Virus record (IMG/VR): IMGVR_UViG_3300026488_000020
Span: 1-64,000 of that record
Origin: a virus
Length of the DNA stretch: 64,000 nucleotides
Reading direction: 5' to 3' (one strand)
Positions 1 through 38,957 of the stretch are shown here, piece after piece. Below the pieces are notes generated by a model. It was not told the DNA's origin and did no database searches. It was given only the letters and a program-made list of their open reading frames with translations. Position 1 is the stretch's first letter. Each line of letters starts with the position of its first letter. A program made the position numbers and the translations under genes.

Positions 1-110
1 TCAACAGGTGTCTCAACTACTTCTTCAACAGTTTCAACAGGTGTCTCAACTACTTCTTCAACAGTTTCAACAGGTGTCTCAACTACTTCTTCAACAGCTT
101 CAACAGGTGT
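1..110. repeat. 33-bp coding tandem repeat (about 3.3 copies visible)
   Basis: tcaacaggtgtctcaactacttcttcaacagtt at 1, 34 and 67 (one mismatch), partial copy at 100. Confidence 0.9.
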
Positions 111-134
111 TTCTTCTTTTTTTCTTTTAGCCAT
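1..134 (-). CDS. Partial ORF (runs off the left edge), acidic protein with TVEEVVETPVE repeats
   Basis: ATG at 134 with upstream AGGA; translates MAKRKKEETPVEAVEEVVETPVETVEEVVETPVE...; not in the ORF track. Confidence 0.7.
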   Translation of the reverse strand, partial: MAKRKKEETPVEAVEEVVETPVETVEEVVETPVETVEEVVETPV

Positions 135-188
135 AATATAATTCCTATGTTTTATTTTAATATTTGTTATTGTTACCGAAAATATGTT

Positions 189-1352
189 TTAGAACATATT
201 TTCGATCTCATCCCTTAGATCAACATCTTGTTTATCTAGTCCAACACCAACATGTGATTTCTTTAGCGTAAGGTTTACAAGTGAGCCGGTTAATCCTGTA
301 CTAGCAATTAGTCCAATATTATCACCTGCTCGTAAATTCATTTTTGAAATGAATAATGGATTATAGCATCGATGACATATACCATCTTTTGCATGACAAT
401 ATAAAGGAGATCTAAGTTTAACAGTTTCACCAACAACATCTGATTTAGTTGTGAGTTGCATTTCTATTCCAACTTTAGTTCTATAATATCGACCTTCAAA
501 TGATTTTAACATATCTTTATCTCTAATTTTAATTTCAAGATACTTCTTTGTTCCACAATCTTCTAAATTAGATAATTTTATTCTTTCAGCAATTGCTGAT
601 AATTTTCGACCTAAATAACCAGGCTTAGCAGTTTCTGAACTCTTAGCATATAATGCTTGAATTGCTTGTGAACTACCATTAAAGAATTCTGTCTGAGTCA
701 TCCCCTCAACGTGTGAATTAGTAATAACATCATTAATTTCACCAAATGAATTAATAGATAATCCGACAGCAAGAAGAAGGGATTGAATATGTTCAACGCC
801 CCCTTTAGCTCCAGATTGATCACCTAGTAGATCAGCAACATAAATTTTATTTTCAATAAAATATGATTGTACTTCTTTAGCAATCTTTGTCATATCTTTT
901 TGTAGTTTTAATGCATCTTCCGGTGTTTGTTTAGATTTTTTATATACATCAACTGCTTCATTTTTTGCAGATACAAACTTCTTAGGAAGCGTTAACGCTT
1001 CAGGTTGAAATGAACTTGGAATAACTGATGATAATGTAAAACCTGCTTGCATCAATAGATAATAAAACCACATAAAATCAATACCATTATCAGTTACAGA
1101 ATCCGTTTTGTTTATCAATTCCGAGATTGTTTTTTTAGTTAATGTTTTAGTAATTTTAACTTTTGAATGTAAAATATTATCTTCGAGGTTATCTATAATA
1201 GAATCTCTTAGAAGAGATTCTGATAAATTTTTAGAAGTGTCTTGTTTGAGTCTTGTAAAGAATTTATCCAATCGCACATTTACCCATTCAGGTCTTTTAG
1301 TATGTTCAGGGTATACAAACTCCTGATTAAATGTTAAGTTGTCACCAATCAT
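189..1352 (-). CDS. Phage multisubunit RNAP-1 beta-prime middle fragment (region F, bridge helix, Zn site, trigger loop)
   Basis: SGAKG, NSHVEGMTQTEFF, ETAKPGYLGRKL (bridge helix), EDCGT, LRSPLYC...GICHRCY, NLTLKKSH (trigger-loop-like). Confidence 0.88.
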   Translation of the reverse strand: MIGDNLTFNQEFVYPEHTKRPEWVNVRLDKFFTRLKQDTSKNLSESLLRDSIIDNLEDNILHSKVKITKTLTKKTISELINKTDSVTDNGIDFMWFYYLLMQAGFTLSSVIPSSFQPEALTLPKKFVSAKNEAVDVYKKSKQTPEDALKLQKDMTKIAKEVQSYFIENKIYVADLLGDQSGAKGGVEHIQSLLLAVGLSINSFGEINDVITNSHVEGMTQTEFFNGSSQAIQALYAKSSETAKPGYLGRKLSAIAERIKLSNLEDCGTKKYLEIKIRDKDMLKSFEGRYYRTKVGIEMQLTTKSDVVGETVKLRSPLYCHAKDGICHRCYNPLFISKMNLRAGDNIGLIASTGLTGSLVNLTLKKSHVGVGLDKQDVDLRDEIENMF

Positions 1353-2932
1353 GTTAGTTCCTTTATATATGTTTTTATATATGTTTTATTTCCGGCATCA
1401 AATATTTTTCTAAAATTATTTTGAAACATATTTGATGTTTCTGTTTTAGTATCATCAAATTGTTTCAACAATTTCTTTAATTTATGCTTCTGATATTTAA
1501 CTCTTGATTCGAGATTCAGACCTTTAAAATAAAAATAATTTGGAGGTGTTGTGTGTGTGTATTCAAATCCCAAAACCTCATATAAATTACCATTACTCCA
1601 TCGTCTGTTCGCGTATGATATTATACTTTCTGGCTCATAATTTCTTTCAAAATATTTTAATAATTTTGATGCACCACCAATAACAGTTGTATTCAATTTT
1701 GAACAGAATCTTATTAATTCATATTGATACCTTTTATCATAACGTGATTTTCCAAAAGTCATTAATGAAACTAATTCATCATTATAATATAAACCTAACC
1801 GTATTGATGATTTTCCTGGACCTTGTAAATGATTTAACAATTCAAAGTTTGTTGAATCATTTACTTCCTTTATAACACACTTTCTTGCAAAAATTCTAAC
1901 AGTGTTCCCAATTTTAGAATTTATAACACTTTCCCATATTTTTCTTTTATATATCCACTCATTTTCAAATATTTGATATAATTGAAAATCTTTTTGTTCA
2001 ACCATGTCCAATTTAACAACATGTCTATTACGGTCTTCTACTGGACTATTAAACATAGAATATTTGCTTATTCCATAGCTATGAAACATAAGGCCATGAT
2101 ATTCAATTGCGAATTTATGTTTATACGATAATATATCCAACTCTTTTCCAATAAATATTTTATCACTTTGGATAGCATCTGGAATTAATGCGAGTATTTC
2201 CGTTTCTGCAAATGAAGTGCCTTTCCGCTTAGTAAAATCAATAGATAGTTCTTTAAATTTTTTATGGACCGCTGGTTGACAAACATTAAAATATTCCATC
2301 ATTGAACGTACCATTATATGATTATTGCTATCTAAAAAATTAGATTTAATAAAATCAACATTATACCAATTATCAAAAGATTTTATATGACTATGTTGAA
2401 ACGATTCTGTACCAAATTTTTCAAGATTTGTCTGCTTAACTTTATCCTTTATCATATGCGATTGAGATGCATATTCTGTACCAAATTTTTCAAGATTTGT
2501 CTGCTTAACTTTATCAGAACATAATATATTTGTGTGACCATATTTTTTTAGATTTGTTTCTTTTTTCTTTTTTATTGAGTCTTCTGATGCAAAATTATAT
2601 TCATGACCATATTTTTTTAGATTTGTTTCTTTTTGACTCTTTATAAATTCAATTGAGGTGTTTGAACATTTAGGTGAACAGTAAGTTCCAAAACCTTTTG
2701 ACGGAGAATTAAATTTAACAAAATTGTCACATAAAGGTTGCTTGCATTTGAGATCATCTTCTTTTATATTATTTTTAATAATGTATGCTCTAACTTTTAT
2801 ATCAATAGTTTTTAAATTGATTGATGGATAAAAAGATGTCTCTTCAATTATTTGATTTTTTAGATCATCGGATAATTTTGATGATAATCTTTGTGATTTT
2901 CCAACAAAAATTTTTGCCTTTAAATCTGACAT
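1349..2932 (-). CDS. Free-standing Hef-like homing endonuclease (KYG/KFG repeats, Vsr/PD-(D/E)XK-like nuclease, C-terminal GNAT-like domain)
   Basis: TNLKKYG/TNLEKFG repeats, ELDI...FAIEYHGLMFHS, RIFARKC, NHLQG, YELIRFCSK...GGASKLLKYF, ISYANRRWSNGNLY. Confidence 0.75.
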   Translation of the reverse strand: MSDLKAKIFVGKSQRLSSKLSDDLKNQIIEETSFYPSINLKTIDIKVRAYIIKNNIKEDDLKCKQPLCDNFVKFNSPSKGFGTYCSPKCSNTSIEFIKSQKETNLKKYGHEYNFASEDSIKKKKETNLKKYGHTNILCSDKVKQTNLEKFGTEYASQSHMIKDKVKQTNLEKFGTESFQHSHIKSFDNWYNVDFIKSNFLDSNNHIMVRSMMEYFNVCQPAVHKKFKELSIDFTKRKGTSFAETEILALIPDAIQSDKIFIGKELDILSYKHKFAIEYHGLMFHSYGISKYSMFNSPVEDRNRHVVKLDMVEQKDFQLYQIFENEWIYKRKIWESVINSKIGNTVRIFARKCVIKEVNDSTNFELLNHLQGPGKSSIRLGLYYNDELVSLMTFGKSRYDKRYQYELIRFCSKLNTTVIGGASKLLKYFERNYEPESIISYANRRWSNGNLYEVLGFEYTHTTPPNYFYFKGLNLESRVKYQKHKLKKLLKQFDDTKTETSNMFQNNFRKIFDAGNKTYIKTYIKELT

Positions 2933-2942
2933 GATTTGGTCC

Positions 2943-4193
2943 TTATTTATAAATGTTATCTAATGATCTTAAATAATATGATTCTATTGTCTTTGTTCTA
3001 ATTGAACCAATATTGTCTTCACATACAATTGAATCTTTTACATCTAAAGTTAAAGATGTTGTAAATGAATCACCACCCAAAGGTTTATACAATAATGAAT
3101 TAACAACAATATGATATGAATTTGTTGGTATTATAACAGGTGATAAAGCATGATATGAATTTTTATCCCACGCCGGATCTCTCTTTAATAATACTCTAAG
3201 GCTTGGATGATGCTCAAACATTTCCTTTAAAAGTTTTACCCATATTTCACGTTTACCTGGATTAGCATCAGTATATGCGTCAACATTTCTATAAATGTAA
3301 TCAAAGTGTGTTCCAAATTTTGATTGTGATAATCCTTCAACGTTTAACTGTTTAGCAAAATCTTCTGAGAAAATTGATTTACCAATCGATCCTACAACAA
3401 AAACATCAAAAACATTTAATAACACGTGCCACGGTAGACCAGCACAATTGAATGGTATATCTGGGCGTGCATTTGCAACTAATCGTACATTATTATCAAT
3501 ACGTTTAGATATAAGAGATGCTCTAAATGCACCTTCTTTCTTTTCTAATAACTTTAAAAAATAATCGTAAATTTCGATAACTGATTTTTGGATTTCAAGC
3601 TCTCTGTTCGATGTTTTTAAAACTGCCTGCATTAATGCATTCTCTTGCTGACCAATAGTAGTCAATCCTAAAAGATTCTTATATAACATTGTTAATTCAT
3701 CTTCAATTGTTATACCATGATTCTGAGTAAACATGCGAAACTTAGGTGGAACTACTAAATATTTACTGATAAATAATTCATCTCTTTTTGTATTTTGGAA
3801 ATGTCCAATTACTGCTTTATTTTTCTCAGTTTTATATTTATCAAAATCTATTTTGTTCCAATTATTAAACAACCATCCGATACCTGTACTACCATTATCT
3901 GATTCGATTAGTTCACCATTTACTAAGTTAACTTTTTTATCTGAGTATACAATTCTTTTAAAAAGTGGTGAAACTTTTTGTAACGCTTGTAAAATTGCTG
4001 GATGTAAAACATTTGTTTTTAAATTTATATAACCAAATGTTTTTGATATTTCTTCAGAAGATGTTCCGAAGATAGTGTTAGAATATAAACCATCATCAGT
4101 AGGAACATTGTCTCTATTAAAAGAATTCCGGTTTGTAACTTCTAATACTGATTCTGATTTAATAAATTTATTAATACTTAAAACTTTTAACAA
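2943..4193 (-). CDS. RNAP-1 beta-prime N-terminal fragment ending in the first half of the catalytic motif (..PLGGD), fused to a 41-aa split-intein N-fragment
   Basis: DDGLYSNTIFG, FGYINL, LVVPPKFR, ISKRIDNNVRLV, LLKRDPAW, YKPLGGD|SFT...; lacks the N-terminal Zn ribbon. Confidence 0.88.
   Translation of the reverse strand: MLKVLSINKFIKSESVLEVTNRNSFNRDNVPTDDGLYSNTIFGTSSEEISKTFGYINLKTNVLHPAILQALQKVSPLFKRIVYSDKKVNLVNGELIESDNGSTGIGWLFNNWNKIDFDKYKTEKNKAVIGHFQNTKRDELFISKYLVVPPKFRMFTQNHGITIEDELTMLYKNLLGLTTIGQQENALMQAVLKTSNRELEIQKSVIEIYDYFLKLLEKKEGAFRASLISKRIDNNVRLVANARPDIPFNCAGLPWHVLLNVFDVFVVGSIGKSIFSEDFAKQLNVEGLSQSKFGTHFDYIYRNVDAYTDANPGKREIWVKLLKEMFEHHPSLRVLLKRDPAWDKNSYHALSPVIIPTNSYHIVVNSLLYKPLGGDSFTTSLTLDVKDSIVCEDNIGSIRTKTIESYYLRSLDNIYK
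2946..3068 (-). other. Split intein N-fragment (IntN, 41 aa, Ser1)
   Basis: SFTTSLTLDVKDSIVCEDNIGSIRTKTIESYY... begins exactly after GGD, where xDGD is expected; resembles block A plus the N2 'I..IE.L' motif. Confidence 0.75.
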
Positions 4194-4256
4194 CTGGAAT
4201 CCTTTATTTTATATTTCTTATTTGTTGCTGGACTCAAAATTCCAGACCTTGTTATA

Positions 4257-7200
4257 CTACTGTACAACAGTACCTGGAGCTTGAGGTTTAAGAATACCTA
4301 GAGGATCAGCAGTATGTGGAGTTAACCCCATATCAACTTCATTTAACTTATTTGTCATTATTTGAACTTTTTCTTCTCTATCATCAGCTGATATATTATG
4401 AATAGTATTCTCGATATTTTCATCATTATATTCTGGAAATAGATTTCCAAGATTATTAGACATTTTAATAAGATTCTTAATCTTCTCTTTATCAATACGA
4501 ATTTTAACAGATGCTGAATCAGTTAAAATTTCTATACCATTATAATCTAAAGCATTTGTCTTAATAAATTGAAGAACTGATTTAAATGATTTAAATGGTA
4601 ATGATTTAATATATTTATTAATCAATGTTAAATCAATTTGACCTGTTGTATCAAATGAATGTTTAATATTATCTACCATTTCTAAATTTGCCTGTATTAC
4701 CATAGCATCTTCAGCGTTTTCATTCATCTGTAATCTAATATCTGTCCAATCGTCTTCAATGATTTTAATTACTAACTTCCCGAAAGGATGCATCATTAGG
4801 ATCTGCTTATTGAATTGATTATCTTTTAAGTTCATTTGTTCCCATTCGAGAATAGAATCAGTTTTACATAAAATTGCCCAAAACTCTTGACGCTCATCCT
4901 GCATCGCGGATATAAGATCATTAATGTTTTTATGTTCTGTATATTTAATTGAATCAGCTAATGATATATCACCTCTAAAATAAGTCATACGGCGATCATT
5001 ACTAGGGTGTGATAATGGAGTATCTCCATTTGTAAGCATTAACATATTGAAATGTCTTTCTACTTTAGCACTATCAACACCTTTCTTTTCAATTTGAATC
5101 CATTGATTTCCAGAGAGCATTTTTAAATTATCAACATCATGTGTCTTAGAAAAGTCTGACTCATCTAAAACGATAAGAGAACTAGATTCCATGAATGCAT
5201 TAAAGTTATTAGCTATTTTTTCAGAATTAACAATGTTAACATATTTATGATTTAAATAGTACTCTAAAAGTTGAGTTACAAAAACACCTTTACCTGTACC
5301 TTGAACAGTAGTGATTACTGGAATCACAGGCATTGTTTTAAATTGTCCCACACATATTAACCAGTTTACGAAATATTCGATAGAACCCTTTTGTGTAATT
5401 TGATTTAAATAGAACCAGATATTTGGTAAACGTTCTTCAATAATTTTGAGAGCTGATGTTAAATCCATCTGTTCAATTGATTCAGCAAGTTCATGAATTT
5501 TAAGATAATCTTGACCAGGAATCCATAAGTTAACATATTTAATAAAATCAATTTCATATGTATAAGGTTTCCCTGGACGAAATTCTTCAAAAGCATCAAT
5601 AAGAATGTGTTGTACAAATTTCTCGTGAAATACTGCGCGTAATTCCATATCAGCTGCGTGAACACCTAACTGATTCGCTAATATATGATCAGATAACATT
5701 CTAGTACCATCAAAGACTGATGATTTACCATCTTTAAATGATCTAATAATACATGCTCGCTGTTTATTAGCTAAACGATAATAAACAAAATCATCTTGAT
5801 TAATAGTATGAATGATTCCCATCACTTCACCTTCAACCTCTTCTTTATGAATGGTTTTACGATCAGCTGTTTTTAATTCAATTTGAAATTCTGCTTGAAG
5901 ATCAGCTAATATAACTTCGCGAGATACTAATGCTCCACCACGTTCGATATGAACTGCTGCCTCACCTTTTTCTTTCGCTAAATCAATTAACATTGAGATT
6001 AAGTTATATGTTTTACCATCTTCATGAAAATCTTTTACAATCGCTACTGCACCTAAAGGAAAATTTCCATTTTCATCCGGTTCAGCGTTTTGATATATAG
6101 CAAATGATCCATTATCATCTTCATGAAATGGGCATTTATACATTTTATATTTACGACTAGCATCTGGTAACAATTCCAATTCAGCTGCTTTAACCATATA
6201 TGATATTTGATCTTGAACCGGTATTTGTTTTAAAATATTTGAATCAGTAACATTTGAAATAAGTTGTTTATTTCCTTCAGATACTGCTGACTTCGCTTGA
6301 GCAATTGCTCTAGTATCTAATAATATTCTATCAATATTGATATTTGGAACATCTTGTGTGATTTTAAAATTATTTTTAAAAGTAATTGATTGAACAATTA
6401 ATGCTTTTTTAAGACTATCTATTTTAGAATCAGTTAATGTGCTATCCATTAATGTTGAACGAAATGATAATACTGCATCATCATACTTATCTTCATTGTA
6501 AAATTCTTTTATTTCTTCAGCAAAAGCTTTTTGATATTCTAGTTTCGGATTGATAGTACCAGCTAAACGTTGGGTGTGTGTAAAATCACCTGAAGATTTA
6601 TCATATTCAAACCAACATGAACTAACATTACCTGCATGGTCTGAACCATATACTACAAATTTTTCAGATGCTTTAATTAGTGCAAATTTGATATAATCAT
6701 ATACTTTACCAGCTTCAACTCTTTCAACTGCTCTATTAAATTTTAATACAAATTGTAATCCACCACCAGTTGCATAAGCTTTTTGTGTATGTACTTGAAT
6801 ATCTAAACCAGTATTATATAAAACATCATTAACTTTATTTAACACATGAGATGCTGCTACATGTCTAGAAGTCTCTTCATATGAATTAAAATTAAATCTC
6901 CCTTTTTTCTCTTTATCTATATGTGAATCTAAATCGATCACCATAGTATTTACACGGCGAAAAGAATGAGAACCTGGCGCCACTGGTTCACCTCTTTCAT
7001 CTTTTTCAATATATTTAAAGATTGCTGATGAAATTGAAAATCCTACGTCATTTTTCCATTCATTTTTCTTTACACTATTATATGTCTTTTCAATAACTTG
7101 AATGAGTTCTTCAACATTTCTAATCTGATCATATATAGTTCTTTGATTATCAATTTTATTACCATTTTTTTCATATGGTGCAACACAAGTCATACGAATC

Positions 7201-7367
7201 GTTTCATCTTCTGCTAAATCTTCTCCAATTACTGTATCCCAATAATCTCTAATATCATTAACTCTGATTCTTTTTTTCCAATTCACTGACCCATTTATTG
7301 CTGGTGCCTTTTGAAATTCATTTACAATCTGTTCTGCTGTTTTTGTTGTTTGGTTTATTGTTTGCAT
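4257..7367 (-). CDS. Primase-helicase: N-terminal AEP/RepB-like primase, CPFH Zn finger, C-terminal D5-like SF3 helicase
   Basis: VIDLDSH, ATGGGLQF, TQRLAGTIN, CPFHEDDNGSF, Walker A VQGTGKG, Walker B LIVLDES, IEKKGVD, MLTN, DRR. Confidence 0.8.
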   Translation of the reverse strand: MQTINQTTKTAEQIVNEFQKAPAINGSVNWKKRIRVNDIRDYWDTVIGEDLAEDETIRMTCVAPYEKNGNKIDNQRTIYDQIRNVEELIQVIEKTYNSVKKNEWKNDVGFSISSAIFKYIEKDERGEPVAPGSHSFRRVNTMVIDLDSHIDKEKKGRFNFNSYEETSRHVAASHVLNKVNDVLYNTGLDIQVHTQKAYATGGGLQFVLKFNRAVERVEAGKVYDYIKFALIKASEKFVVYGSDHAGNVSSCWFEYDKSSGDFTHTQRLAGTINPKLEYQKAFAEEIKEFYNEDKYDDAVLSFRSTLMDSTLTDSKIDSLKKALIVQSITFKNNFKITQDVPNINIDRILLDTRAIAQAKSAVSEGNKQLISNVTDSNILKQIPVQDQISYMVKAAELELLPDASRKYKMYKCPFHEDDNGSFAIYQNAEPDENGNFPLGAVAIVKDFHEDGKTYNLISMLIDLAKEKGEAAVHIERGGALVSREVILADLQAEFQIELKTADRKTIHKEEVEGEVMGIIHTINQDDFVYYRLANKQRACIIRSFKDGKSSVFDGTRMLSDHILANQLGVHAADMELRAVFHEKFVQHILIDAFEEFRPGKPYTYEIDFIKYVNLWIPGQDYLKIHELAESIEQMDLTSALKIIEERLPNIWFYLNQITQKGSIEYFVNWLICVGQFKTMPVIPVITTVQGTGKGVFVTQLLEYYLNHKYVNIVNSEKIANNFNAFMESSSLIVLDESDFSKTHDVDNLKMLSGNQWIQIEKKGVDSAKVERHFNMLMLTNGDTPLSHPSNDRRMTYFRGDISLADSIKYTEHKNINDLISAMQDERQEFWAILCKTDSILEWEQMNLKDNQFNKQILMMHPFGKLVIKIIEDDWTDIRLQMNENAEDAMVIQANLEMVDNIKHSFDTTGQIDLTLINKYIKSLPFKSFKSVLQFIKTNALDYNGIEILTDSASVKIRIDKEKIKNLIKMSNNLGNLFPEYNDENIENTIHNISADDREEKVQIMTNKLNEVDMGLTPHTADPLGILKPQAPGTVVQ

Positions 7368-7410
7368 TTTGTGCCTTTTGATATATTTATTTTATTTTAT
7401 TTTTGATATG

Positions 7411-8574
7411 TTAATTTAAATTAGATGTAGCGTTATATAATCCTAGGATTGCATCATCAGCAATCCATTGGTTAATTTCACCGTCATTTAAATTTCGATA
7501 GTAGTCTTTATGTTCTGGAGAAAATTGATTAGAATCTTCAATACCTTCTTTAGTAAAAATACCTGAAGCTCCTAAAATGTCCCCATCAGAGTTCTTCATA
7601 ATTGGTGTAAGAGGTAAAGAATAATTCGTAGCATCAACTCTTTCAGAAGTTAAATCGTACATCTTATTATTATTAGTTACCTGCTCTAAATAAAAAGATG
7701 AAAGCGGTATTGCTAAAATTTTTCCAGAATTTATCATTGCTGATAGAGCGCTACTTGAGCTATTTTTTTCATCATGATAACATTCTTTTGCTAAATATAA
7801 TTCATCATTTTCAACCTGATATGCGTCTTTTTTGATAAATTTTGATGGAAAATATTTGCTGAATACTTTAGATAATTGAATAAAAAGTTTTTTACGATTA
7901 TCTCTTGAATTTCTGATAGAGTATGATGCTCCAAGATAATTTAAAATTACAGTAAATGTGTAAATGTTAACATTAGTATTAATAAAAAATGCATTATCAT
8001 TATTTTTTAAATAATAACCTTTTAATATACCTAAACAGAAATCAGCATTTGAATTCATCAATATATTTTTATTCAATGAAATACCGTTTTTAGTATTAAT
8101 AAATAACCGGTAGAAACCATTAGCAGCGATATCTGGTATATCTTTAGTTAATAAATAATCAACAATATTATCAGTGCCTGCTAATGCATTACCAATTTGT
8201 AATCCGAAATCATAATTTAATTTTATATCATGTGTTTCACCATCTTGCACATATTCCATTACATCATTAGTTTTTAAATTTAAAGCTGGTATTGGATATA
8301 ATATGAATGCATCATTCTCAACCATTTTTGAGGTACAATCATCTACTCGTTTCATATGTTTATCTATACCTATAATACTGCTATCTTCACCAATAATAAA
8401 ATTAGTTTTTTTATTAAAATATCCTGGTGCTAGAACAGTATCTGTTCTATTAAAGTTATTTATACTCAACATTAAATATTTAGTTTGTACTTGATGTTCT
8501 TCAATTGTTAATGTTTCTTGTGTAATGACATCATTGCTGTCTGTCAGTCCTAAGACTGTTATTTTTTTATTCAT
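7411..8574 (-). CDS. Split intein C-fragment (328 aa, degenerate LAGLIDADG remnant) fused to a 59-aa RNAP-1 beta-prime C-extein starting SDGD
   Basis: Block F KMYDLTS, block G IMKN|S; the extein SDGDILGASGIF...DDAILGLYNAT matches beta-prime FDGDQMAVH...QDVVLGLYYMT. Confidence 0.85.
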   Translation of the reverse strand: MNKKITVLGLTDSNDVITQETLTIEEHQVQTKYLMLSINNFNRTDTVLAPGYFNKKTNFIIGEDSSIIGIDKHMKRVDDCTSKMVENDAFILYPIPALNLKTNDVMEYVQDGETHDIKLNYDFGLQIGNALAGTDNIVDYLLTKDIPDIAANGFYRLFINTKNGISLNKNILMNSNADFCLGILKGYYLKNNDNAFFINTNVNIYTFTVILNYLGASYSIRNSRDNRKKLFIQLSKVFSKYFPSKFIKKDAYQVENDELYLAKECYHDEKNSSSSALSAMINSGKILAIPLSSFYLEQVTNNNKMYDLTSERVDATNYSLPLTPIMKNSDGDILGASGIFTKEGIEDSNQFSPEHKDYYRNLNDGEINQWIADDAILGLYNATSNLN

Positions 8575-8621
8575 TCTTTTGCCTTTTTGGTTATTGATAA
8601 TTTGTTCTTTATTACAGTATA

Positions 8622-8635
8622 ATTTCTATACTAAC
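8622..8635 (-). promoter_or_regulatory. GTTAnnATAGAAAT putative phage promoter motif pointing at the 8574 gene
   Basis: Minus strand reads gttagtatagaaattatactgtaataaagaacaa, similar to 9646 gttaccatagaaattaatatagtaataaagaacaa. Confidence 0.55.
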
Positions 8636-8639
8636 TCAC

Positions 8640-8843
8640 TTCTATCTTTATCGATAAAGATAGAAAAATATTGCCAATTTTCTATCTTTAAAGATCGTTT
8701 TTGTTACCATAGAAATCAATTCAATTCATTTCTATGGTAACTATTTTTCTATCTTAAAAGATCGTTTAATATTTTTTAAGTAATTTTATTTACGTGTTAA
8801 CTATTTTATTTTTTTAAGATTTTCTATCTTTAAAGATCGTTTT
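8640..8843. repeat. Cluster of ATCTTT(ATCGAT)AAAGAT palindrome variants plus an inverted pair of GTTACCATAGAAAT
   Basis: Perfect 26-bp palindrome 8640-8665; variants at about 8678, 8745 and 8820; gttaccatagaaat 8703-8716 with its reverse complement at 8728-8741. Confidence 0.8.
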
Positions 8844-8880
8844 GAAGTTAATATAGAAATAGTAATTAAAAAGGGCATAT

Positions 8881-9558
8881 ATGTACAAAGTAGATACAAC
8901 AGACGCATCAGATTTATCAATTGAGGGAGAGACTCAGATTGTGGATTCAGATGAATTATATTATATGAAAAACGTAATGGATTCAATTAAAAATGTTAAC
9001 ATTAGAGAATTTAACTATATTGTATTCGAAGAAGATATTGATAATATGTACAAAACAGAATTTAACACATTCTTTAATAAATATATCATTGATTTAATCC
9101 AGCATCTTGATCAATATTTAAGTATTAATATTGATGAATTATTAAATGAACCATATAGAGTTAAGCACGCTTTTGTTAAAAATATTGTAAGATTCTTTAT
9201 GAATACGTTACCATATATTTACATGAAAGAATTTTTAGAGAATAATGGTGCAGATGGACTCCATGATGCATTAGATATGTTTAATGATGATCTTAAAGAT
9301 AATATAATCAAGCAGATTATATCAGCGAACTCACAATATTCAAATTTTAATACAATGATGAATGAAGTTAAAGATACCATCACAAATGAGAAGAAAAAAT
9401 ACAAATTTGAAGGTATGTTATCATTACTTGAAGCGTCAATGGACAATAAGAGTAAATTGTTAGATTATTATATTGATATTATACAATCATCAGGAAATGA
9501 TGGATTAAAAGTATTATTTAAACTATATCTTAAAAATGATTTAGAGAATATTTTATAG
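8881..9558 (+). CDS. Hypothetical protein (acidic, helical)
   Basis: 225-aa ORF with AAGGG RBS and the promoter-like motif at 8847. Confidence 0.75.
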   Translation: MYKVDTTDASDLSIEGETQIVDSDELYYMKNVMDSIKNVNIREFNYIVFEEDIDNMYKTEFNTFFNKYIIDLIQHLDQYLSINIDELLNEPYRVKHAFVKNIVRFFMNTLPYIYMKEFLENNGADGLHDALDMFNDDLKDNIIKQIISANSQYSNFNTMMNEVKDTITNEKKKYKFEGMLSLLEASMDNKSKLLDYYIDIIQSSGNDGLKVLFKLYLKNDLENIL

Positions 9559-9579
9559 GAACCTAAGGGTTCCTTTCTT
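9557..9579 (+). terminator. Putative intrinsic terminator
   Basis: aggaacc-taag-ggttcct followed by ttctt, at the stop codon. Confidence 0.55.
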
Positions 9580-9631
9580 GTGGCTCGATTCAGAGAATCG
9601 ATATAAATCAATAAAAATCTATATTTATTCT

Positions 9632-9659
9632 GGGAAATACAAATAGTTACCATAGAAAT
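9632..9659 (+). promoter_or_regulatory. Extended promoter-like repeat gggaaatacaaatagttaccatagaaat
   Basis: Also found at 9909 and 35090. Confidence 0.6.
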
Positions 9660-9904
9660 TAATATAGTAATAAAGAACAATACACAAGTATTAATATGGA
9701 ATAATCTATATGATATTAATATTGAGACTATATAAAGAAGAAAATGATTACAGCACTAGTTGCTATATGAAAAAGAGTAAATATAAAGTCAAGAGGCGGA
9801 TGGTCGTAACCATAGTTAGGTTATTCCTAGTTACGATTCTGAGCCCACTGGTGGTTTTTTATTGTTAGATTTCCTCTATTTATTAATGTATTTATACATT
9901 AATT

Positions 9905-9948
9905 CTTTGGGAAATACAAATAGTTACCATAGAAATAACTATAATAGA
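9905..9948 (+). promoter_or_regulatory. 44-bp promoter-like element containing TATAAT, near-identical to 35086-35129
   Basis: ctttgggaaatacaaa(t/c)agttaccatagaaataactataataga, one mismatch between copies. Confidence 0.65.
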
Positions 9949-9991
9949 TAAAGAAGAAAAGGAAATATACCCGCCAGAGGAGGTATAACAC

Positions 9992-10012
9992 AACAATAGA
10001 AATATTGTTTTT
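9992..10012 (+). terminator. Putative terminator hairpin with GAAA loop
   Basis: aacaata-gaaa-tattgtt followed by ttt. Confidence 0.4.
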
Positions 10013-31436: not shown

Positions 31437-31831
31437 GATATGATAAAAAAGATTCAATGGGTAATAAGCCGAAAGTAAAAGAAGATTTTAAAAGAGAACA
31501 TGTTCAAATATCAAAAGATATTATGCAAAAGATCTCGAAGATTTATATTGATAGATTAAAAGCTTTAGAAGTCAATGATGTTAAAATTGTGTCAAATGTT
31601 CATAGAGATCAAATTATTTTTAATGAGGCAGTATCACTTACACAATTAAGCACAAAACTTGGTAAAAAACTTGTATCAAAAAATGAGTTTGCAAAAGAGT
31701 TTTATATGTATTCATTGGATTCAATGATTGATGAAGCATATGGTAAAAAAGTTACAGCAATACAAGAGTTTCCATATAGTTTTCAAGAGACTCAAAATGA
31801 CAATGTTATCACATTTGAGTTTATAGTTTAA
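31430..31831 (+). CDS. Hypothetical protein
   Basis: Tiled ORF. Confidence 0.65.
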   Translation: MVRYDKKDSMGNKPKVKEDFKREHVQISKDIMQKISKIYIDRLKALEVNDVKIVSNVHRDQIIFNEAVSLTQLSTKLGKKLVSKNEFAKEFYMYSLDSMIDEAYGKKVTAIQEFPYSFQETQNDNVITFEFIV

Positions 31832-31867
31832 CGATCTTTAAAGATCGTTTTCATTAGTATAGAAATA
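31830..31867 (+). promoter_or_regulatory. 20-bp palindrome variant followed by the promoter-like motif
   Basis: aacgatctttaaagatcgtt at 31830-31849; attagtatagaaat at about 31854. Confidence 0.6.
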
Positions 31868-35485: not shown

Positions 35486-35877
35486 TGATAGCATTACAAG
35501 ATTTAGCAAAGCCACCTAAAGATTATAATACAATGGTGGCGCGCAAAACTGGAGTTACCCCAAATAAGGTTGAAGGTGTTGTAGTCAATAAAAAATCTGG
35601 AAAAGGATACAATGTAGTTATTCTTATGGATACTGAAGAGATGCAACCAAATTCACAATTAAAAGTATATTGTAATTGTGACGATTTTAAGTTCAGATGG
35701 GCTTATGTTTTACATCAACAATCAGCTTTATTGTATCCAGCAAAGTTTAGATTAGAGCCACCAAAAAGTACAAATCCTGATCAAATTATGAATGCGTGTA
35801 AACATATTCATACCTTTATTAAATCAGAATCAGATAAAGGTTTAAAAGCATTTTCTAAAAGAAAAGGTAGTTTATAA
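35485..35877 (+). CDS. SWIM-type zinc-finger protein
   Basis: YCNCDDFKFR...ACKHI. Confidence 0.7.
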   Translation: MIALQDLAKPPKDYNTMVARKTGVTPNKVEGVVVNKKSGKGYNVVILMDTEEMQPNSQLKVYCNCDDFKFRWAYVLHQQSALLYPAKFRLEPPKSTNPDQIMNACKHIHTFIKSESDKGLKAFSKRKGSL

Positions 35878-38800
35878 TGGCTATTGAATTATCATTTTCT
35901 CTTTTTGAGAATGCATATAAATTAAGAGGCGTTACCAATCCTAGCCCTCTTAAAGCTGGTAAATTCAAATTTACAGAAGATGGTTTATATAGTGAATCAA
36001 TATTTGGTCCACTAAAATCATATTCTTGTAATTGTGGAAACTTATTTTCACGTGAGAATACTGGAATCAGATGTCCAACGTGTGATGTATTATGTGATAC
36101 AAATACTTTACGAAGTTCAACTTTTGGTAGAATAGATTTACCAAAAAATATTTTTATTGTGTTGCCAATTTTTCAAACATTCTTAGCAAATGTTTTTGGA
36201 CAAACAGCAATTAAGAGTTTATTAGATTATAGAAAATATGAAACCAATAAGCAGAAGCCTTATTTTTATTCGATCCAACAGCAGAAACTGATTAAAGGAA
36301 GTGCCTTTAAAAAGACAGAAGAGCGGATAATGAAGGAAGTGTATGATATAACAACACTGCATAAATTGTATAGAGCAATGTTAAAATCAAAAGTATTTCG
36401 TGAAAATATAATTGATCATTTATCTGATGCTAGAATTGCAGATTTTGTATTCGTAAATTTTATTTTAGTTATTCCACCAGATTCTAGACCATTGGTTCAA
36501 TTGAATAAACAATATCAAGCGCATCCAATAACAGCAGCATATACTGAGATTCTTAAGAATATTAAAAATTCTTTTCTTGATAAAGCATTTGTAACTAAAT
36601 CCGAAGGGTTTGGACAAACAGTTTATAAATATCAAAAATCAGTTAATAAACTATATGAAGAAGTTACAGATAAAAACTTTCAACGTAAAGAGAGTATTGT
36701 TCGAGAATCATTAGCTGGTAAAACTGTTGAGACATCTCAACGTGCAGTTATTGTACCTGAGCCAGTACTTGCTCCAGGTTCAGTTGCATTGCATGAAGAG
36801 ACTGTAAAAAAGATTTTTCAGCCTGAGTTATTACATTTTGTGAATAAACAATATGAAGCACAAGAAGGTGATTATTCAATTACTAATTTTGTAGAAACTG
36901 TTCATAATCAAACATCATCAAATGGTGATATTATTATCGATGATCAAATGTTTATTGATTTCTTAGATGCGAAAGCTTCTGATTTACGAATGATAATGGA
37001 GCGACCCCCAGTTTTATATAGATATAATATGGGTAATGTTTTACTCGGTTCAGTTTATATGGATAATAAACATGTGGGATTTAAACAAGATAGAGTTATT
37101 GGAGTAAATTCCATGAATGCTCCAATGTTTAACTTTGATTTTGATGGAGATTCAGTATCAATATATGCTTTAACCTCAAAACAATCTAAAGAAGCATTTA
37201 AATATGGATACACTGAAAATTCAATCGAGTTTGAACATAATAGAAACCTGATTCCTAGTTTGGAACATGAATCAATTTATGCCGCATACATGTTATCATT
37301 AGGTGCAAGTAAAAAAACTATTCGTAAATACGACATTGATGAATACGATGATTTCGATTCAATGAATGTTACTATTGATAGCATTAATAGAACACCTGGT
37401 AGACCAGTAGTGATTGCTGGTAAACAATATCCATATATTGTTGCGGTATTAAATAAAGCTTTAAATTGCAACAAAGAAATTTATGATGGGTCATATGTTT
37501 TAAATAAAAAGAATATAAATAAATTATTAAAGTTGTTAAGAGCTGAAGTTGGAGATGTTGAATTCTTTACTTATATGCATAACTTTGATAAATTTTTATT
37601 AGAGTGTTCTACTATTATTCAAGATTGTAATCCAACATTTGATTTACACGACTTTGCAATTGGTAATACTGAGATTGATGAATATAAAACAACATTGATT
37701 AATGAACCATATATAGCATTTCATCAGAATGATATATTATTCCAAGAGTTGGTTACACCAGCTGTAAAAGAATCAGATACAAATATTCTATCGAGAGTTT
37801 TTGAATCTGGCGCAAGAATAAAATCAGTACAACTTTTAAAAGCTGTATCAAATAATGGTGTACCGACAAATATTTATGGTAAAGCATTCCAAGAGAATAT
37901 TAAAAATTCTTTATTAGATGGCTTGACAAAAAAAGAATTTTTCATGGGTGGAGATTCGGCACGACTTGCTCTAGCACAAAGACAGGAAGCGATTCCTAAA
38001 GGTGGAGAACTTCAGAGAAAATTTTATTACAGTACTGGTTTTTTAAAATTATCAGATGATGATGATTGCGGGAGCACTAGAGGTTTTGAATTTAAGATTG
38101 TTGATAAAACACATCTTGAATCATTATTTTCCAGACATTATATGGATGGTTCAGAAATTGATACAACAGATATGAGTCTTATTGGTTCATATGTAACTTT
38201 ACGCTCACCTATATATTGTGAATCAAAAGGTTATAAAATTTGTAAAAAATGTTTTGGTAAAAAACAACCTCAGTCGAAAGCATTAGGTGCATCTATTGGT
38301 GCATATATCTCTGAGTCGATAATCCAATCTGTTTTAAGAACGCATCACTTTAGTGGAGCGTTTATTACTCAGATTAATTCAGTGATGGTAAAATTGATTA
38401 AGAAATTAAGATTTAAGTCACCAGATTTAGTATATTATGATGATGAGCAAGATATTCATGACTTACAAGAGTTATTAAATTCTGCAAAATATTATGATTC
38501 TGCAAATATGGTTGAGTTAGTTAAACAAGATGATGATACAGATAATGTTCATTATAAAGTTCAAATTAATGAGTTACCATTTAACGATGATTCAGTTAAA
38601 CAGTTAAATAATATTGTTGGTTATATTGATAGAAATCGTTCTGTTGATAATCTGATTAGTATTCCAGATATGTATAATTTTCTATTAGATAATGTTGTAT
38701 TACCAAATGGTATGTTATCAATATTTATCGAACTAGTTATTAGTATCTTATATTATGATGAACATGATGTTATGATTCGATATTCTAATTTAGAACCTGA

Positions 38801-38957
38801 CCATCAAGTAGCATTGAAAAATGTTATTGATAAGTTAGATCCAAAATTAGCAATATTTCACAATTTTAGTAATAAGGCTATTAATAGAATTTATACTACT
38901 AAAATAGATGGTAATTTAGATCATATGTATTTTGATCTGATAAATTGCTATCATTAA
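35877..38957 (+). CDS. Phage multisubunit RNAP-2 beta-prime subunit (largely unsplit, intact catalytic motif)
   Basis: DGLYSESIFGP, CNCG...CPTC Zn ribbon, VIPPDSRP, ERPPVL, FNFDFDGD, SGAR, DGLTKKEFF, DDCGS, CKKCFG, SVLRTHH. Confidence 0.93.
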   Translation: MAIELSFSLFENAYKLRGVTNPSPLKAGKFKFTEDGLYSESIFGPLKSYSCNCGNLFSRENTGIRCPTCDVLCDTNTLRSSTFGRIDLPKNIFIVLPIFQTFLANVFGQTAIKSLLDYRKYETNKQKPYFYSIQQQKLIKGSAFKKTEERIMKEVYDITTLHKLYRAMLKSKVFRENIIDHLSDARIADFVFVNFILVIPPDSRPLVQLNKQYQAHPITAAYTEILKNIKNSFLDKAFVTKSEGFGQTVYKYQKSVNKLYEEVTDKNFQRKESIVRESLAGKTVETSQRAVIVPEPVLAPGSVALHEETVKKIFQPELLHFVNKQYEAQEGDYSITNFVETVHNQTSSNGDIIIDDQMFIDFLDAKASDLRMIMERPPVLYRYNMGNVLLGSVYMDNKHVGFKQDRVIGVNSMNAPMFNFDFDGDSVSIYALTSKQSKEAFKYGYTENSIEFEHNRNLIPSLEHESIYAAYMLSLGASKKTIRKYDIDEYDDFDSMNVTIDSINRTPGRPVVIAGKQYPYIVAVLNKALNCNKEIYDGSYVLNKKNINKLLKLLRAEVGDVEFFTYMHNFDKFLLECSTIIQDCNPTFDLHDFAIGNTEIDEYKTTLINEPYIAFHQNDILFQELVTPAVKESDTNILSRVFESGARIKSVQLLKAVSNNGVPTNIYGKAFQENIKNSLLDGLTKKEFFMGGDSARLALAQRQEAIPKGGELQRKFYYSTGFLKLSDDDDCGSTRGFEFKIVDKTHLESLFSRHYMDGSEIDTTDMSLIGSYVTLRSPIYCESKGYKICKKCFGKKQPQSKALGASIGAYISESIIQSVLRTHHFSGAFITQINSVMVKLIKKLRFKSPDLVYYDDEQDIHDLQELLNSAKYYDSANMVELVKQDDDTDNVHYKVQINELPFNDDSVKQLNNIVGYIDRNRSVDNLISIPDMYNFLLDNVVLPNGMLSIFIELVISILYYDEHDVMIRYSNLEPDHQVALKNVIDKLDPKLAIFHNFSNKAINRIYTTKIDGNLDHMYFDLINCYH

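Follow-up and report, generated by a model that had tools for sequence, protein, structure and literature searches.

Inteins have been described in the RNA polymerases (RNAPs) of archaea (rPol A′/A″) and of eukaryotes (RPB2, RPA2 and RPC2), the eukaryotic ones residing in the second-largest subunit (PMC1635734). These elements lie at highly conserved sites near the active centre, and all of them are contiguous. Split inteins that are free of cysteine and carry a short N-terminal piece (IntN) are very rare and are sought after in protein engineering; one of them, the PolB16 OarG intein (Pasch et al. 2023), is natural, atypically split and has serine at both position 1 and position +1 (PMC10189870). 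Here, we describe a locus in 64,000 nucleotides of viral DNA (positions 1 to 64,000 of IMG/VR record IMGVR_UViG_3300026488_000020; hereafter, the window) in which the metal-binding loop of an RNAP β′ subunit is divided between two genes. With a probability that we put at roughly 0.84, the dividing element is a naturally split class 1-type intein with serine at both junctions, interrupting the Asp triad D-S-D-G-D in the N-terminal β′ subunit (β′-N) of one of two multisubunit RNAPs. Like the described RNAP inteins, it sits at a conserved site near the active centre; unlike them, it is split. A literature search found no paper that describes a phage RNA polymerase carrying a split intein.

The closest named homologue of the split β′-N is AR9 g145, the β′ of the AR9/PBS1 virion RNA polymerase, which is 31% identical to it. 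AR9 g145 is annotated as joined from three pieces, and its last intervening sequence, which carries the endonuclease g146, lies exactly at GGDYD|GD, the site at which the window's gene is split. A free-standing endonuclease encoded at the window's locus is 39% identical to g146 (E 3e-51). The two pieces in the window thus correspond to what lies on either side of a site already known as a hotspot of interruption. In AR9, the interruption operates at the RNA level and within one gene (PMC12350094), whereas in the window it would operate at the protein level and across two genes. The first interruption of AR9 g145 (L004 6448-7945), labelled ‘group I intron VSR’ in its record, matches a group II intron in Rfam (80.7 and 55.2 bits), an assignment that agrees with PMC12350094.

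Both halves of the split polymerase gene are encoded on the minus strand. The downstream gene (gene B, 4193-2943, stop codon 2945-2943) starts at a TTG codon and encodes 416 aa. Its open reading frame (ORF) follows β′ as far as YKPLGGD, with the Asp codon at 3071-3069, and then continues into a 41-aa tail beginning with serine (IntN, 2946-3068). The 375-aa N-extein (3069-4193) ends in PLGGD and contributes the first catalytic Asp; it matches phrog_2986 (1e-37) and Pfam Rpb1 domain 1. An AlphaFold2 (AF2) model of β′-N from an alignment of 48 sequences adopts the β′ fold with a predicted local distance difference test (pLDDT) score of 83.7, and its top Foldseek match is the AR9 RNAP chain 7s01_d (E 1e-14), followed by bacterial β′ chains. 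The second gene (gene A, 8574-7411, stop codon 7413-7411) lies 3.2 kb upstream on the same strand and encodes 387 aa. Its first 328 aa (IntC, 7591-8574) end in PIMKN, the terminal Asn328 codon being 7593-7591, and are followed directly by the remainder of β′. This 59-aa C-extein (7590-7414) runs from SDGDILG to LGLYNATSNLN, terminates in ...DDAILGLYNATSNLN and contributes the second and third catalytic Asp. The original prediction had placed the split at these positions, and its coordinates are correct to the base. The DxDGD metal loop of this polymerase is present only across both genes together.

That so short a C-extein belongs to β′ had been proposed from resemblance, and a search of a library of 1.8 billion proteins bears this out. 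The 59 residues match the C-terminus of P0149, a natural unsplit β′-N of 445 aa that reads LGGDSDGD, with an E value of 4e-6, and also match AR9 exon 3; the match to β′ is far beyond chance. Joining the two exteins in silico restores the DxDGD motif as anticipated, and the joined product aligns end to end with P0149, with 435 columns gapless across the junction, 33% identity and an E value of 2e-71. The Mg-binding loop most likely exists only after splicing of both proteins.

The residues expected to carry out splicing are conserved together with the catalytic loop. Ser1 stands directly after GGD in 103 of 104 relatives, a terminal Asn precedes SDGD in all 129 members of the IntC family, and SDGDIL is invariant in alignment A1 of that family. 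The earlier claim that splicing would depend on Ser1, the terminal Asn and Ser+1 is in keeping with their near-invariance, together with that of DGD, across about 100 relatives. The conservation of Ser1 and of the terminal Asn is not explicable by RNA polymerase function.

The fold of IntC is that of an intein whose beginning is missing. Its AF2 model, built from a 25-sequence alignment, reached a pLDDT of 81.6 and a predicted template modelling score (pTM) of 0.79, with low scores only in the 59-aa tail. The best 12 Foldseek matches of this model are all intein homing endonucleases (PhoVMA, PI-PfuI, TliVMA and PI-SceI; E 7e-7 to 3e-4). VIA-align superposes IntC on PI-SceI with Z 14.0 and a root-mean-square deviation (rmsd) of 4.0 over 264 residues, and on the RecA, DnaB, DnaE and Aes123 PolB1 mini-inteins with Z 10.0-10.5 and rmsd 2.4-2.7 over about 115-124 residues. 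In every pairing, residue 1 of the IntC model falls on intein residue 20-46, while model residue 328-332 falls on the intein end, 328 being the terminal Asn. The Hint part comprises residues 1-116 and 244-328. PI-SceI, PI-PfuI and the Tli and Pho VMA inteins, the best structural matches, share the Hint plus LAGLIDADG architecture, but they are contiguous, begin with Cys1, are active endonucleases and are only 7-12% identical to IntC. Relative to these contiguous inteins, roughly the first 40 residues of the element are carried by another protein.

Residues 117-243 of IntC (7846-8226, minus strand) form a LAGLIDADG-like domain with the two lobes of that fold. Its alignment to I-DmoI covers about 115-120 residues with a middling Z of 6.5-7.2, backed by the whole-intein matches above. 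The two LAGLIDADG helices read ...G.xIGxxL and ...LGILxGY in alignment A1, where the catalytic acid positions, read by eye rather than from a superposition, hold Asn, Lys or Arg in the first helix and a near-invariant Tyr in the second. To judge from these substitutions, the endonuclease domain is probably dead.

The part that IntC lacks is plausibly supplied by the tail of gene B. In the AF2 model, β′-N passes through a low-confidence hinge (372-376) into a long two-stranded β-hairpin formed by IntN (381-393 and 396-410; pLDDT about 88). The 41 residues of IntN match in length the portion missing from the IntC fold. Because of this match in length and the confidently modelled hairpin, IntN is taken to be the missing start of the intein. 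Among the 104 relatives, the tail measures 34-71 aa and has the consensus S-[FLMY]-[NST]-[TS]-N-[FIYV].

Taken together, the best reading is of a fixed, cysteine-free and atypically split intein, divided unusually near its N-terminus and with an inactive endonuclease. Those computational checks proposed with the original prediction that were run all spoke for it. What the analysis shows directly is the sequence with its fold and conservation, the order of the genes and the lack of a gene that could substitute; that the halves bind and splice is an inference. Among the closest precedents for such a design is PolB16 OarG, with which the element shares a split near the N-terminus, a short IntN and serine at both junctions. 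The two differ in that PolB16 OarG has a 15-aa IntN, an IntC without endonuclease domain and a DNA polymerase as host gene, whereas the element in the window has a 41-aa IntN, a LAGLIDADG domain and an RNA polymerase host.

Several observations weigh against an intein that splices. The earlier expectation of a Hint fold held by structure, which gives Hint plus LAGLIDADG with the N-terminal strands missing, but was barely reflected in sequence models: Pfam Intein_splicing (PF14890) missed the window's protein and matched only 2 of the 25 family members, at best with E 1.6e-5, a PDB profile search returned chance matches only, and a Pfam scan of ten IntN tails found no intein family. Where block B (TxxH) would be expected, the family alignment A1 lacks a conserved His, and the penultimate residue is Lys in 115 of 129 members and His in only 4. 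Lastly, one β′-N relative, P0219, has Ala rather than Ser at intein position 1; an error in sequencing, a copy that is dead or another mechanism could account for it.

The absence of both histidines and the relative with Ala1 are also what would be expected if the halves merely docked, holding the chains together with no peptide bond between them so that a two-chain catalytic loop results, or if they cleaved without ligating. We regard this as quite unlikely. Mere docking needs no near-invariant Ser1, Asn328 and Ser+1, and known RNA polymerase structures lead us to expect that a 369-aa intein left at the buried Mg loop would obstruct the active centre. Moreover, not every intein has a block B or a penultimate His (PMC10189870; Gly-Asn ends are reported in PMC1635734). 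In cysteine-free inteins, the block B His can be dispensable and its role taken by another His: in PolB16 OarG, the N3 (block B) His109 is dispensable and the more N-terminal NX-motif His68 is essential (PMC10189870). H27 is the only invariant His of the IntC family; at intein position 68, it precedes the expected block B by about 38 residues, a spacing similar to that of His68 and His109. H27 may be an NX-type His, although the NX His of PolB16 OarG is preceded by Arg or Lys and no such conserved residue precedes H27 in the IntC family.

A split intron of group I or group II that joins the gene's pieces as RNA has to be weighed as well, given the annotated intron of AR9 g145 exactly at GGDYD|GD and its related endonuclease. 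Positions 1-10000 of the window gave no Rfam match at E<=1, whereas the group II intron of AR9 reaches 80 bits; Rfam also missed the AR9 group I intron, so that this negative is of limited power for group I. The layout itself speaks against an intron. The window's left 8.6 kb form a single dense gene block, all on the minus strand, whose intergenic gaps of 10-63 nt leave no non-coding room, and the piece encoding the 3′ part lies upstream of that encoding the 5′ part, which makes cis-splicing impossible. The 328 aa before SDGD belong to a single open frame that is conserved, folds as an intein and closes with an invariant Asn. RNA-level joining is judged highly improbable. Four DNA sequencing runs yielded short contig pieces only; the joints listed have 21-35 letters on the shorter side and none links 3069 to 7590, a result that bears neither on expression nor on alternative DNA forms.

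The two-gene layout is shared by about a hundred related phages. The IntC protein has 96 relatives when sequences are clustered at 90%, and an exhaustive profile search recovered 70 clusters at 50%; a search of named phages with it gave no match. All complete relatives measure 330-470 aa, and no fused form of IntC and β′-N occurs among the 70 clusters. The β′-N locus was searched for in viral contigs by alignment, single-sequence patterns having given nothing. The order IntC gene, primase, β′-N/IntN and β′-C is kept in six independent viral contigs with β′-N identities of 35-69%, the primase standing between the intein halves in six of six fully covered relatives. The identities of IntC and β′-N drop together (53/67, 50/69, 35/40 and 32/36 percent), and this parallel fall and the kept order therefore point to old vertical inheritance. 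In a 97% complete relative genome of 272 kb, the intein halves lie about 13 kb apart.

This arrangement departs from that of known fractured genes. The cases of Dassa et al. 2009 reportedly share with what is proposed for the window an essential phage-type gene that a split intein breaks into two genes, close to a gene for a free-standing homing endonuclease. Their halves are said to be neighbours in N-to-C order on either side of that endonuclease gene, with the intein divided at the canonical split site. In the window, by contrast, the order is reversed, a primase gene separates the halves, and a probably dead LAGLIDADG domain is retained within IntC.

The window also encodes a complete second β′ (35877-38957, plus strand; 1026 aa), which is unsplit, carries an intact NFDFDGD and belongs to the other polymerase set. 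Its presence leaves room for the view that the split genes are a decaying, non-functional remnant or an assembly artefact while the intact enzyme transcribes everything. This view is very improbable: neither ORF is broken and both are conserved, down to 30% identity, across about 100 clusters, the order recurs in the six independent contigs, near-identical pieces occur in sequencing runs from other studies, and two polymerase sets are known in AR9-like phages, as annotated in their records. Nor does the second β′ replace the split gene; it is only 22% identical to the split β′-N over 138 aa. In the window's own contig, it holds the sole other RNAP-type DxDGD, and the same is true of two relatives with completeness of 97% and 100%, which hold only the divergent second β′. 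A separate gene supplying an intact DxDGD for the split polymerase, which the original prediction had named as a possible refutation, was thus not found in these genomes. Whereas AR9 and phiKZ divide this subunit into an N and a C protein, the second β′ is one 1026-aa protein; among named matches, β′ genes of Rhizobium jumbo phages come closest to it, at about 24% identity.

In the proposed mechanism, gene A would produce IntC, which comprises most of the Hint fold and an inactive LAGLIDADG domain, followed in the same chain by the 59 aa that end β′-N, and gene B would produce the first 375 aa of β′-N fused to the 41-aa IntN. The IntN hairpin would dock on IntC and complete the Hint fold. Ser1 would then attack the Asp375-Ser bond, the N-extein would be transferred to Ser+1, and cyclisation of Asn328 would free the intein. 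The resulting 434-aa β′-N, reading ...LGGD-SDGD..., would assemble with β′-C (1352-189) and the β subunits. The element would be fixed and vertically inherited in a large clade of uncultured jumbo phages, its mobility having been lost.

The original prediction had further suggested a post-translational switch on transcription. This found no support, and a regulatory switch is not favoured because both genes lie in one tightly packed block on the same strand. It also seems unlikely, though somewhat less so than any of the rival explanations above, that the split is no mere frozen accident and that trans-splicing, as a checkpoint both obligatory and rate-limiting, controls when or how much of the (probably virion-packaged) polymerase is assembled, with the dead LAGLIDADG domain of the excised IntN-IntC having a job of its own such as DNA binding.

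If splicing is confirmed, a universally conserved Mg loop of RNAP would be built by protein trans-splicing across a jumbo-phage clade of about 100 sequence clusters, some of them from genomes of 270-290 kb. Annotation pipelines will label such β′-N genes truncated or catalytically dead and the IntC gene hypothetical. For protein engineering, the family would offer many natural cysteine-free split inteins with a short IntN (34-71 aa). The DxDGD site itself appears to be a hotspot for different selfish elements, namely the AR9 intron, the intein in the window and a smaller intein type represented by P0143. This other IntC-like protein, 249 aa long, occupies the same DxDGD site without an endonuclease domain; it has a canonical S-E-D-H block B and ends in KN|TDGD, with Thr at position +1, which suggests that this loop harbours another type of intein as well.

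The window belongs to a viral contig of 84 kb that is about 30% complete, and the same proteins occur, identical, on a 286-kb contig. The sequencing run that covers the whole stretch is a hydrothermal-vent metagenome; the source is an uncultured hydrothermal-vent jumbo phage. Within the gene block, the transcription order is 8574-7411, 7367-4257, 4193-2943, 2932-1349 and 1352-189. The gene between the intein halves (4257-7367, minus strand) encodes a primase/helicase-like protein of 1036 aa that matches Pfam DUF5906 (2e-16) and phrog_1156, a DNA primase. The free-standing homing endonuclease (1349-2932, minus strand; 527 aa; phrog_3339, 9e-111) lies between β′-N/IntN and the β′ C-terminal subunit, the next piece of the split polymerase (189-1352, minus strand; 387 aa; Pfam Rpb1 domain 5, phrog_3015 and phrog_2962). 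The endonuclease gene varies among relatives: L005 lacks it, L006 has two copies (before and after β′-C), and in L007 it follows the IntC gene and precedes the primase.

Upstream of the IntC gene, the divergent intergenic region (8678-8841) contains three minus-strand copies of a 22-nt motif, AACGATCTTTAAAGATAGAAAA, which has an internal palindrome. A related copy is found at 31828-31849, the chance expectation being about 0.01 copies; a role of the motif as promoter or operator is possible. At the left edge of the window (1-141, minus strand), a short tandem peptide repeat, ETPVE(T/A)VEEVV, is encoded in an ORF that continues beyond the window.

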